NCBI GenBank assembly: GCA_016206285.1
Contig: JACQRW010000006.1
Coordinates: 1 to 62,441 of the forward strand
DNA from: Candidatus Sungiibacteriota bacterium
GTDB lineage: Bacteria; Patescibacteriota; Minisyncoccia; Sungbacterales; HO2-52-23
Direction of reading: 5' to 3'
Length of the DNA: 62,441 nt
Below the pieces are notes generated by a model that was not told where the DNA came from, searched no databases, and was given only the letters and a program-made list of their open reading frames with translations. A program made the translations under genes and the position numbers. How positions within the stretch are numbered: position 1 is the stretch's first letter; every line of letters starts with the position of its first letter. Below are positions 10,575 to 24,288 of this stretch, one piece after another.

Positions 10575-10620
10575 CTACTAATTATCTACTAATCCTACAC
10601 TTATTAGTAGGTAATGTCAA
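10575..10620 (-). promoter_or_regulatory. Promoter of the Fic gene with three 8-bp operator-like repeats
   Basis: Minus strand: TTGACA-17 nt-TAGGAT. CTACTAAT sits in the spacer and ATTAGTAG occurs twice downstream of the -10 box. Confidence 0.5.
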
Positions 10621-10645
10621 ATTACAGAGGATTACCCTAAAATAC

Positions 10646-10717
10646 TGTCCTCGGGCAGATTCGAACTGCCATTACGGGCTTCGGAGGCCCGCGTTCTATC
10701 CATTGAACTACAAGGAC
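10646..10717 (-). tRNA. tRNA-Arg (anticodon CCG), CCA not encoded
   Basis: Manual cloverleaf: acceptor GTCCTTG/CGAGGAC, D arm GTTC/GAAC, anticodon stem CGGGC/GCCCG with loop CTCCGAA, T arm GGCAG-TTCGAAT-CTGCC, discriminator A. Confidence 0.9.
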
Positions 10718-10736
10718 AGAAACCCCAAACACGAGA

Positions 10737-10765
10737 ATCATACCCGATTTTGCCGCAATTTACAA
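10737..10765 (-). promoter_or_regulatory. Candidate promoter of tRNA-Arg
   Basis: Minus strand: TTGTAA-17 nt-TATGAT, about 20 nt upstream of the tRNA 5' end. Confidence 0.45.
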
Positions 10766-10769
10766 CTTA

Positions 10770-10794
10770 AAAATCCGGCACATTGCCGGATTTT
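10770..10794. terminator. Bidirectional terminator hairpin
   Basis: aaaatccggca-cat-tgccggatttt, a perfect stem flanked by A and T runs. Confidence 0.6.
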
Positions 10795-11303
10795 ATTCAC
10801 GCACCCCATCTGATCTCACGAACTCTCATTCCTGAAATCGGATAGGGTCGGGAGGAACGCGTGCGCTCCTCCCTAAAGATTACTTAACATGTCTCAAAAA
10901 TATTTTTTGGCCACCCACGAGGGTGACCCACACCCCAACTTCGTTGGCGTGTGCGAAGGCAATGCCTCCGAACACACAAAACGAAAGAGGAGCGTTTCCA
11001 CTCTTTTCTTCCCTTTCGGGAAGTCGAGAGTGACAGATGTGCCCGCGCGGTGCTCTCGCCGCGCGCCAACCTATGGACCTTGCCATAAAAACCTCCAAAA
11101 TTTCACAAAAATCAATAAAGGCAAGACGGTTAAGATCAATCTGCGGAGGTAGCAGATGACTCAAATCCGCTTGCGCTGGGGCGATCCTTTTCCTGACCGC
11201 CCGGACAGAAGGACAGTGGGCAGACGCACTCCAATTTGTGTAATTTTATGAGTGTCCGCGTTGCCCTTCCATCCGGACGGTCACGATCGCATTTTCAATG
11301 ATC
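10795..11303 (-). ncRNA. Large structured non-coding RNA candidate (possibly RNase P RNA-like; class unresolved)
   Basis: About 0.5 kb lies between two terminators with no convincing ORF. It carries many GNRA-capped hairpins, e.g. CACTCT-CGA-CTTCCC-GAAA-GGGAAG-AAA-AGAGTG, and a 14-bp helix GACCGTCCGGATGG/CTGTCCGGGCGGTC. Short strings recall RNase P conserved regions: TCCATAGG, GCGGCGAGAGCACCGCGCGG, GGAAACGCTCC, CGGAGGCA, CCCGACCCTATCCG. Confidence 0.45.
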
Positions 11304-11344
11304 CGTAAATAAATATAGCAGCAATCGGTATTCGAATGCTGCTA
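11304..11344 (-). terminator. Terminator of the 292-aa NYN-like gene
   Basis: 8-bp perfect stem TAGCAGCA/TGCTGCTA followed by a T-rich tract on the minus strand. Confidence 0.5.
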
Positions 11345-11351
11345 TTATACA

Positions 11352-12230
11352 CTACAAAGATGTGGCTGTCAAGTCACCGTACCGAAAGATCGAGGGTTCA
11401 ATGTCAAATTCAAGAATAAAGGCAGTTGCCTCCGCATTGAATGCCCGTACGACATCCCTATAGTCGGAACCATACACATCCAGCGCAACCACTCCCCTCG
11501 TTTCTTCCAGTTGGAGCGTGCAGATACGGAGTCCGTATTTTGTCACAAAGTTATCAACAAATTTAAGCAGAGCATGACGCGCAGCAAGATCACTGCCGTC
11601 CACAGATTCCGGGAAGGCCAATGTCCATCTTATTTTTTTTACTCCAGAGGAATCGGATTCGGTGACGGATGAAGTTTGTGGCGCATACATCTCGATTGCG
11701 ATCTTTTGTACAAAGGTAGCGAGATCGGTAAATTCATAAACACTGCCAAGCAGCGGAGTAAGCTGTGTTGAAATCATAGATGCCCCGCTCCTTGGATCTT
11801 CTGTTTTCGTTGCCACGATATGCACCGCTATGCCTTGATTACGCTTGGCTTCCAGACAAGAGTAATAGTCAGAGATATCAGCGGAAACCAGGATGATCTT
11901 TCCGACCTGCGTCGGATCAAGCCCCAGCAACACTTCAATAATAAAATGGTCATCCTGACTGTTCTCAGATGGTACAGGTTGAACATTAAACCCCGCATCA
12001 CGCAAAGGTTTTCCGATACTCGCTTCCACGCTTGGTGGTAAAACGTACATCGGCTTGCCAAAAAGTTGCGCGCCACCGGCAATGTCAGAAACCAACACTT
12101 CGTATATCTCCTTGAAGTTGCTCCGCCGGATTCTTAAAGGACCACGAAGCATAGAATTGAGTGAACGCTCATCAATGATGATAAATGTGGCACCCTGCGA
12201 GATACTTTCAGAGCTTTGTCCAATACCCAT
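11352..12230 (-). CDS. NYN/LabA-like domain protein (acidic residues retained) with a C-terminal extension
   Basis: FIIIDERSLN, SQDDH, ILVSADISDY and GIAVHIV follow the NYN/LabA pattern. The ATG at 12230 is preceded by the SD AGGAGAGG. Confidence 0.55.
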   Translation of the reverse strand: MGIGQSSESISQGATFIIIDERSLNSMLRGPLRIRRSNFKEIYEVLVSDIAGGAQLFGKPMYVLPPSVEASIGKPLRDAGFNVQPVPSENSQDDHFIIEVLLGLDPTQVGKIILVSADISDYYSCLEAKRNQGIAVHIVATKTEDPRSGASMISTQLTPLLGSVYEFTDLATFVQKIAIEMYAPQTSSVTESDSSGVKKIRWTLAFPESVDGSDLAARHALLKFVDNFVTKYGLRICTLQLEETRGVVALDVYGSDYRDVVRAFNAEATAFILEFDIEPSIFRYGDLTATSL

Positions 12231-12287
12231 CTTTCCTCTCCTCTCGATTTTTTTCAAAGAAGTGAAAATACACTACCACAAACATAT

Positions 12288-22278: not shown

Positions 22279-24288
22279 ATGCCCTTCACCCTCAAAAGTC
22301 AATTTGCTCCGACCGGAGACCAGCCCGCCGCGATTGAAAAACTCGTGAGCGGACTTCGCAATGGCGCACAACACCAGACTCTGCTTGGGGTAACCGGGTC
22401 AGGAAAGACATTTACTATTGCGAACGTAGTGGCGCAAGTCCAGAAACCAACGCTCGTGATTTCGCACAACAAAACCCTGGCCGCACAGCTGTATCAGGAG
22501 TTTAAAGAATTTTTCCCGGACAACGCGGTGCATTATTTCGTATCATACTACGACTACTACCAGCCGGAAGCGTACATCCCCCAGAGCGACACCTATATTG
22601 AAAAGGACGCGAAGATCAACCAGACCATTGATGCGCTCCGGCACTCCTCCACCGCGTCTTTGCTCACGCGAAAAGACGTGCTGATCGTGGCATCGGTCTC
22701 CTGCATCTACGTCGTAGGCAGCCCGGAAGAATACGAGAAAGTTGCGATCAAACTCGCGCCCGGAGACAAACTTACGCAAAAAGAATTGGCGCGCCGCCTC
22801 ACGCTGCTGCAATACAGCCGCAACCCCATTGATCCGCGCCAGGGACATTTCCGCACCCGCGAAAATCGCGTGGAAATTTATCTGCCGTCCGGAGAAGAAA
22901 TCATCTTTGTTGAATTCGAGAATGGCAAAATCTCACTCATTGAAAAACGTGCGGTCTTAATGTCATTCCCGCGAAAGCGGGAATCCAGTACCGGCAACTT
23001 CTGGATTCCCGATCAAGTCGGGAATGACAGGGGTAACGCATCGCGTGTCCAAATCTTTCCGGCAAAACATTTTGTCACGCCTACGGACAAACTCAAGCTC
23101 GCGATCCTCAACATTAAAAACGAGCTGGCACAGCGCCTCTCGGAGTTGAACAGCCAGGGAAAAATACTCGAGGCCGCCCGCCTCAAACAGCGTACCGAAT
23201 TTGACATGGAAATGCTCGCGGCTACCGGATATGTAAACGGCATTGAAAACTATTCCCGGCACATGGAATTCCGCGAGCCGGGTACGCCTCCCCATACCCT
23301 GCTCGATTATTTCCGCCATGCGAACGGCAATGATTTCCTTACGGTCATAGACGAATCCCACGCCACCATTCCCCAGCTTCGCGGCATGTATGCCGGAGAC
23401 CAGGCACGCAAGCAGACGCTCATCAATTACGGCTTCCGCCTGCCGTCCGCGGCTGACAACCGCCCGCTTATGTTTGACGAATTTACCAAGCGCGTGAACG
23501 AGACAATCTACGTTTCGGCAACGCCAAACGCATACGAGCTTCAAAAATCAACCATCCATGTGGCGGAGCAGATCATCAGGCCTACCGGCATCCTTGACCC
23601 GAATACCGAAGTCCGGCCGACCAAAAACCAGGTGCAGGACGTGATCGCAGAAATCAAAAAACGCGTCGCAAAGCATGAGCGCTCGCTGGTCATGGCGCTC
23701 ACCAAACGCTTAGCCGAAGACATTGCCGAATATCTTATTGATGCCGGCATCAAAGCCGAATACCTCCACTCTGAAGTAAAGACGCTTGACCGCCCCGATA
23801 TTTTAAACAAGCTCCGCACCGGAGAACACGACGTGATCGTGGGCATCAATCTTTTGCGCGAAGGCCTTGACCTGCCCGAAGTTTCATTTATTGCGATCCT
23901 TGATGCGGACAAGGAGGGTTTTTTGCGCAATAACACCACACTGCTTCAGATCATCGGCCGGGCCGCGCGGCATATTGACGGCACGGTCATCCTGTATGCG
24001 GATACCGTGACCGGGTCCATGAAAGCGGCGCTTGGCGAAACCGAGCGGCGCAGAACAATCCAGCACGAGTACAATGTGGCACACGGCATAGTCCCGACCG
24101 AAATTAAAAAAGAAATCCGCGCCTCCATGCTGGGCGAAACAGAACCTGAAGAAGACAGCATCCCCCGCACCGGAACCGCTGAGGCGATCATCAAAGAGCT
24201 TGACCGCGAAATGAAAAAAGCCAGCCGCGAAATGGATTTCGAACGCGCGGCAATACTGCGGGATAAGATCAAGAAATACCGCGCATAA
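22279..24288 (+). CDS. uvrB: Excinuclease ABC subunit B
   Basis: GVTGSGKTF Walker A, DESH, helicase motifs and a C-terminal UVR domain. Full length, with a 23-codon repeat-derived insert. Confidence 0.95.
   Translation: MPFTLKSQFAPTGDQPAAIEKLVSGLRNGAQHQTLLGVTGSGKTFTIANVVAQVQKPTLVISHNKTLAAQLYQEFKEFFPDNAVHYFVSYYDYYQPEAYIPQSDTYIEKDAKINQTIDALRHSSTASLLTRKDVLIVASVSCIYVVGSPEEYEKVAIKLAPGDKLTQKELARRLTLLQYSRNPIDPRQGHFRTRENRVEIYLPSGEEIIFVEFENGKISLIEKRAVLMSFPRKRESSTGNFWIPDQVGNDRGNASRVQIFPAKHFVTPTDKLKLAILNIKNELAQRLSELNSQGKILEAARLKQRTEFDMEMLAATGYVNGIENYSRHMEFREPGTPPHTLLDYFRHANGNDFLTVIDESHATIPQLRGMYAGDQARKQTLINYGFRLPSAADNRPLMFDEFTKRVNETIYVSATPNAYELQKSTIHVAEQIIRPTGILDPNTEVRPTKNQVQDVIAEIKKRVAKHERSLVMALTKRLAEDIAEYLIDAGIKAEYLHSEVKTLDRPDILNKLRTGEHDVIVGINLLREGLDLPEVSFIAILDADKEGFLRNNTTLLQIIGRAARHIDGTVILYADTVTGSMKAALGETERRRTIQHEYNVAHGIVPTEIKKEIRASMLGETEPEEDSIPRTGTAEAIIKELDREMKKASREMDFERAAILRDKIKKYRA
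22961..23029. repeat. GC-rich double-hairpin palindromic element inserted in frame in uvrB
   Basis: tgtcattcccgcgaaagcgggaatccag + 12 nt + ctggattcccgatcaagtcgggaatgaca, 69 bp in total. It translates to MSFPRKRESSTGNFWIPDQVGND. Confidence 0.85.

Follow-up and report, generated by a model that had tools for sequence, protein, structure and literature searches.

A probable composite non-coding unit in a Candidatus Sungiibacteriota genome: a member of a new small-RNA family followed by an orphan structured insertion

Small RNAs that pair with Shine-Dalgarno sequences through C-rich loops are represented by RsaE/RoxS and the hairpins of RNAIII, and structured RNAs of other kinds by 4.5S/SRP RNA (RF00169) and 6S RNA (RF00013), type A bacterial RNase P RNA (RF00010), group I introns (RF00028) and the ROOL, GOLLD and OLE RNAs. 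The locus described here lies on the minus strand of a 62,441-nt stretch of DNA from a Candidatus Sungiibacteriota bacterium (contig JACQRW010000006.1), the whole of which is referred to as the window, and it shares features with each of these classes. Its 5' part, a long hairpin termed the rod, resembles 4.5S and 6S RNA in being single-copy, about 100 nt long and mostly double-stranded, with a consensus promoter, a covarying helix and a conserved sequence patch; this patch, however, consists of an apical stem and its 16-19-nt loop and corresponds neither to the helix-8 loops of SRP RNA nor to the central bubble of 6S RNA. Its 3' part, an insertion of 380 nt (the insert), is similar to a group I intron in its size, its GNRA-capped hairpins, its clean presence/absence polymorphism and its 3'-terminal G. 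The region as a whole (about 510 nt, positions 10795-11303) is comparable to type A RNase P RNA in overall length, in its GC-rich helices with GNRA loops and in a few short strings. Like ROOL, GOLLD and OLE, it extends over several hundred non-coding nt rich in hairpins and adjoins a tRNA gene, but its insert has no Rfam match and no homologues, hence no conserved architecture, and forms a chain of local hairpins instead of a multi-junction core. As in RNAs of the RsaE/RoxS and RNAIII type, CCUCC is presented in a loop, both in one hairpin of the insert and in domain 1, an element found in relatives, although neither has a sequence relation to those RNAs and the organisms are unrelated.

The region is probably a composite non-coding unit, consisting of a member of a new small-RNA family and an orphan structured 3' extension. 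It would constitute a single minus-strand non-coding transcription unit with two parts of different age, both presumably transcribed as one RNA. The first part would be a rod small RNA of about 110 nt driven by a consensus promoter, which in relatives usually lies beside tRNA genes; the second would be an insertion of 380 nt that this lineage gained between the rod and the terminator, transcribed as the 3' extension of the rod and most likely non-coding. The analysis removes a false RNase P call and adds two covariation-supported small-RNA families absent from Rfam, the rod and domain 1, both from Parcubacteria, whose non-coding RNAs are almost unexplored. It also offers a natural example of a conserved small-RNA gene with a large structured 3' extension gained in one lineage. 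The RNAs would also have a bearing on translation control in these reduced genomes, provided that their CCUCC loops act on ribosome-binding sites.

The order of elements on the minus strand is the end of a NYN-domain gene (stop at 11352), a promoter, a 27-nt hairpin, the rod hairpin, about 380 nt of further hairpins, a terminator and a tRNA-Arg(CCG) gene. The promoter (11344..11372, minus strand) is of the sigma-70 type, TTGACA-17-TATAAT, matching the consensus at 12/12 positions in the promoter scan, and it overlaps the stop codon of the NYN gene; its TTGACA box and the TAATAG stretch after it are kept in two related genomes, G001 and G002. The hairpin that follows (11317..11343, minus strand), AGCAGCAUUCG-AAUA-CCGAUUGCUGCU in the MFE fold and then a U-rich run, is conserved in the same two genomes with substitutions that preserve the pairing, and the predicted start site of the consensus promoter falls inside it. 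The rod RNA occupies 11181..11290 (minus strand; core 11283-11194), as delimited by sequence conservation, covariance model (CM) and covariation, and the lineage-specific insertion occupies 10800..11179 (minus strand), as evident from the indel relative to G001 and from the fold energy. The intrinsic terminator AAAAUCCGGCA-AUG-UGCCGGAUUUUU (10769..10794, minus strand), recognized from sequence and fold, comes next; in G001, the same terminator stands almost directly after the rod. The tRNA-Arg(CCG) gene (10645..10718, minus strand; ARAGORN, and 68 bits with Rfam) has a promoter-like site of its own at 10765-10737 in the promoter scan.

When the 566 nt from 11345 to 10780 were folded, an MFE of −258.9 kcal mol−1 was obtained as against −180.3 ± 6.7 kcal mol−1 for dinucleotide shuffles (z = −11.8), which bears out the preliminary description of the region as highly structured. 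That description had also placed the region between two terminators, and terminator-like hairpins are indeed present at both ends (11343-11317 and 10794-10769). The five helices named in it were all recovered on the minus strand; the 14-bp helix GACCGTCCGGATGG/CTGTCCGGGCGGTC lies within the rod core (11283-11194), and the other four lie in the insert, where they are described below.

The rod belongs to a new small-RNA family restricted to one Parcubacteria family (Candidatus Sungbacteria). The family is characterized by a long covarying helix and the apex GACACUCA-loop-CAAAUUGGAGUGCRUCU, and both are present in the window copy. In the form GACACUCA-loop-CAAAUUGGAGUGCGUCU the apex is invariant, and across the family the longer form is nearly invariant. 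In BLAST of the region against 40-41 relatives, two genomes of the same genus matched over its first ~150-166 nt alone, and two other genera of the family over a ~50-nt piece of the 5' half of the rod. Nucleotide identity of the rod region to the same-genus genomes is 81-88%, whereas the protein of the upstream NYN gene, retained within the genus, is only ~26% identical, which places the RNA under far stronger constraint than the gene beside it. The NYN-domain gene (window 11352-12257; relatives' loci L026 and L009) is found upstream of the rod in all three rod-bearing genomes of the genus.

Compensatory changes are visible already among five rod sequences, and the many G-U pairs make the fold strand-specific. 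The consensus built on 16 sequences comprises 27 pairs, of which 17 show compensatory change, so that the covariation proposed earlier as a check on the region supports its rod part. Paired cells amount to 92.6%, as compared to 81.3% in column shuffles (0/500 of which reach 92.6%) and 40-52% when the partners are slid. The helix thus varies freely in sequence provided that the pairing holds, and the apex is nearly fixed. A helix that needs only to pair, together with an apical stem-loop that is almost invariant, suggests that the rod may be a stable RNA recognized by a protein at its apex, and neither a ribozyme nor an antisense regulator. A genome-wide look for complements of the apical loop gave no site that pairs at ≥13/15 positions.

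The covariance model R1, built from five sequences with the window copy among them, identified one locus per genome in 14 of the 36 genomes of the family (Candidatus Sungbacteria/Parcubacteria), with a weaker match on the opposite strand at the same place in three genomes; the window copy scores 103 bits with this model, of which it is one of the building sequences. The rod was missed by R1 in over half of the family genomes, so that it is either dispensable there or has diverged beyond the reach of the model. The exact apex pattern occurs in four records of the genome collection, titled Candidatus Sungiibacteriota, Parcubacteria group and uncultured Candidatus Saccharibacteria, and in three metagenome contigs. 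In four loci the rod was without a match in any Rfam family, and no prior description of the rod or of domain 1 was found in the literature. The related organisms that carry the rod are uncultivated groundwater bacteria.

The rod of most other genera comes after domain 1, an element of 70-90 nt behind a strong promoter (for example L011:1414-1500, plus strand; L018:913-987, minus strand; L027:888-963, plus strand, as located by the domain-1 model search). It is shaped as a three-way junction whose closing helix is AUUCGGGG/CCCCGAAU; one of its hairpin loops, CCCUCCU, is invariant and resembles an anti-Shine-Dalgarno sequence. The covariation of domain 1 extends over 25 pairs, 11 of them compensatory. 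The element lacks a match in Rfam and is single-copy in 23 of the 62 order genomes. The domain-1 model gave no match in the genome of the window, nor in any of the four genomes of its genus (0/4), and only the hairpin 11343-11317 stands at the corresponding position there. The CAUUCG...CCGAUUG core of this hairpin looks like a possible remnant of the domain-1 closing helix; the hairpin may therefore be the terminator of the upstream gene and/or a vestige of that helix.

The bounds of the insert are evident from the comparison with G001, whose masked stretch was read from its unmasked metagenome copy L026. Homology spans 11347-11180 and again 10799-10645, with only 4 nt between the two blocks in G001, and the rod of G002 passes straight into a U-run. 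The segment 11179-10800 is therefore a clean 380-nt indel, and parsimony against the other genera points to a gain. It is an orphan structured 3' extension seen in a single genome among those compared, close strains not included: BLAST found no homologue among 40-41 relatives or over the 62 order genomes, a covariance model made from the 161-nt core of this one sequence found none over the order and none in the related loci with filters off, and the phage and plasmid collections likewise gave none. Within the genome itself, only chance 12-19-mers were obtained with blastn-short, which rejects the insert as a repeat or MITE.

The insert folds on the minus strand with an MFE of −172.6 kcal mol−1 (z = −8.75), as against −138.7 kcal mol−1 (z = −6.4) on the plus strand, and this advantage of 34 kcal mol−1 over the complement fits an RNA transcribed from the minus strand. 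The structure rests on the thermodynamics of one sequence, and single-sequence stability alone is no proof of a functional RNA. Local hairpins follow one another along the fold, and 3 of their 9 loops are GNRA. They include AUCUGC-UACCUCC-GCAGAU (11139..11157; sequence and fold) and, in the MFE fold, hairpin A, GCGCGCGG...CCGCGCG with a GAGA loop of the GNRA type (11041..11070), hairpin B, two-tiered with a GAAA loop, also GNRA (10998..11033), and hairpin C, long and three-tiered with an AUU triloop (10930..10995), within which lies CGGAGGC-ATT-GCCTTCG inside GTGTG/CACAC. These four hairpins carry the remaining helices of the preliminary description. Hairpin D, of 8 bp (10909..10928), hairpin E, GGGAGGAGCG/CGUUCCUCCC (10873-10850), and hairpin F with a GAGA loop (10848-10803) also belong to the chain; all are on the minus strand. 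The CACCC strand of hairpin D has an alternative partner in an upstream GGGUG, as read from the sequence.

The ACCUCC loop of the hairpin at 11139..11157 is complementary to GGAGGU at 11096-11091 within the same insert, and this complementarity may be functional. The loop is also like the invariant CCCUCCU loop of domain 1, which is missing in the genus, and the insert may accordingly supply an element that was lost with domain 1; this is speculative, and rather less probable than its being wrong. The insert would be either a recently acquired functional module, possibly one replacing the CCUCC-loop domain, or tolerated hairpin DNA. In a broader proposal, the rod would make up, together with domain 1 and its invariant loop resembling an anti-Shine-Dalgarno sequence, a ribonucleoprotein or translation-control system specific to the lineage, in bacteria whose SRP components went undetected; the insert would in that case be a new structured module, mobile or a functional replacement of domain 1, and not junk. 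Taken together these claims are improbable.

Several known classes of RNA have to be weighed against the composite reading. The preliminary description proposed a very divergent RNase P RNA, for which it cited five short strings standing in the same order as conserved regions of RNase P RNA, or else another large ornate RNA; the genome's own rnpB moreover has one 11-mer, GAAAAGAGTGG, and a handful of 8-mers in common with the region. That rnpB, however, is a complete type A gene on another contig (G000:C1:6757-7160, 155 bits) of the 754-kb genome (24 contigs, 91% complete), and its P4 strands are intact (GGAAAGTCC and ACAGAAC..GGCTTATCG), whereas GGAAAGUCC ... ACAGAA is absent from the region, where the preliminary description had already seen that the P4 strands are not intact. 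The RNase P models gave no match at the gathering score, and none on 10600-11450 when the filters were made permissive (E ≤ 10). Aligned locally with the rnpB of C1, the insert scored 22, as compared to 18.5 ± 2.3 for shuffles, 31 of 300 of which scored as high, and the five strings thus reflect no overall similarity. The closest relatives also lack 380 of the ~510 nt. RNase P RNA is rejected on these grounds, the outcome being the one that the preliminary description had itself given as its refutation, and its probability is practically nil; of the earlier alternative, the structured RNA stands for the ~110 nt at the 5' end, where covariation supports it, but as a small rod and not as an ornate RNA. 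At gathering thresholds, the 4227 families of Rfam 15 matched only tRNA across the whole window, and the permissive scan of 10600-11450 at E ≤ 10 likewise gave nothing but the tRNA, with no RNase P, SRP, tmRNA, 6S, intron, ROOL, GOLLD or OLE match; the models of raiA and other large Rfam RNAs gave no match either. tmRNA is rejected for the region, ARAGORN having found none in the window and the genome's tmRNA lying on contig C7 (91 bits). Y RNA and a CsrA-sponge RNA are rejected as well, since Ro/TROVE (PF05731) and CsrA (PF02599) were not found in the genome. A reading of the rod as the divergent SRP (4.5S) RNA or the 6S RNA of the lineage draws on its being a single-copy rod-like hairpin behind a strong promoter, on neither of these RNAs having been detected elsewhere in the genome, and on the rod of genome G048, whose apical loop bears a helix of ~120 nt and so gives the stem-bubble-stem outline of 6S RNA. 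Against it, the SRP models do not match the rod loci, and the rod has neither the GNRA tetraloop nor the symmetric-loop motif of helix 8; RF00169 and RF01854 detected no SRP RNA in this genome, and SRP RNA models gave nothing in 41 order genomes and 81 genomes sampled across the phylum. The Ffh M domain (PF02978) was likewise not found in the genome, nor in 41 genomes from the order and 81 from the phylum. Ffh and FtsY were not found in the genome, where the only SRP54-family match is an ABC ATPase and the six-frame translation contains no DTAGR-type GTPase; PF00448, searched in the order, gave only weak P-loop matches in its 41 genomes. SecY is present, and no statement on SRP in this phylum was found in the literature. 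The rod is not taken as SRP RNA because no Ffh was found, and that identity is rejected together with the model and motif results. The 6S model (RF00013) also gave no match, its control being weak (5/14), and the consensus fold has an apical loop in place of a central bubble, for which 6S RNA is rejected too; the recovery of the rod by R1 in only 14 of 36 family genomes also speaks against either RNA, and the whole reading is highly improbable.

As for the insert, its status as non-coding RNA has to be set against a small-protein gene, a mobile element and functionless DNA. The preliminary claim that the region holds no credible open reading frame was too strong, as an ORF of 68 codons (10880..11096, minus strand; ORF search and translation) begins with ATG at 11086, 5 nt after GGAGG at 11096-11092, and ends with TAA at 10882-10880; it holds in so far as neither a coding signal nor a homologue was detected. 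The insert might then be a structured mRNA for a 68-aa orphan, in which pairing between the ACCUCC loop and GGAGG gates translation as in type I toxin mRNAs; besides the open frame and its ribosome-binding site, the 6-nt complementarity of the loop to the Shine-Dalgarno site is legible in the sequence, and in other genera the rod or domain 1 is often followed by small hydrophobic ORFs with such sites. The codon score of the frame, however, is −0.027 as against −0.024 in frame +1, while neighbouring genes score about +0.1 to +0.2. No word-sharing candidate was found among 5.8 billion proteins, no Pfam match was obtained, protein-language recognition was low with no Atlas match, and the peptide, judged by eye from its sequence, has no clear transmembrane helix. 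The frame also crosses four near-perfect hairpins, two with GNRA loops, and comparably long ORFs are carried by the opposite strand, as expected for hairpin-rich DNA. The ORF is thus probably not translated, and a small-protein gene is correspondingly improbable. An intron-like or mobile structured element in the 3' tail of the small-RNA gene, either an ORF-less group I-like intron or a new class, would account for an insertion that is cleanly bounded and absent from the sister genomes, and its 380 nt, several GNRA-capped hairpins and last nucleotide G fit it. But the Intron_gpI and gpII models gave no match at E ≤ 10, the upstream flank ends in C and not U, no GUGYG start is present, and no P1 pairing or internal guide complementary to the flank was found, which speaks against a group I or group II intron. 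The fold, with its local hairpins, lacks the long-range helices of a ribozyme core, neither terminal repeats nor a target duplication are visible at the ends, and no second copy exists in the genome, in the 62 order genomes or in phages and plasmids, all of which makes such an element very unlikely. The insert may finally be functionless, that is, hairpin-rich DNA from a rearrangement or from hairpin-forming repeats, tolerated downstream of a small RNA. Its restriction to one genome agrees with this, the rod of G002 shows that no extension is needed, and a GC-rich palindromic element inserted in uvrB of the same window shows that hairpin DNA does insert in this genome. On the other hand, a pure DNA palindrome would show no bias of stability to the transcribed strand, GNRA loops are enriched, and the insert matches no repeat in the genome; functionless DNA is unlikely, though less so than a small-protein gene or a mobile element.

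The palindromic element inside uvrB (window 22961-23029) consists of ATTCCCGCGAAAGCGGGAAT-type GAAA-capped hairpins; the insert is rejected as a copy of it, there being no sequence in common. In relatives, a tRNA gene often lies directly after the rod or domain 1. An ORF of 30-60 aa with a single hydrophobic helix is seen just downstream of the rod or domain 1 in about one third of the loci (L011, L020, L027, L037, L038, L052, L054 and L056), a proportion given without a computed background rate; most of these ORFs have a Shine-Dalgarno site, and some lie beyond a tRNA. Runs of N cover part of the tRNA-Arg promoter region in L010 (G001) and the middle of the rod in L038 (G013). Insertions at the rod RNA locus are recurrent and not confined to the window: in L046 (G048) the apical loop of the rod carries an extra hairpin of ~120 nt, and in G006 and G015 about 130 nt lie between domain 1 and the rod.
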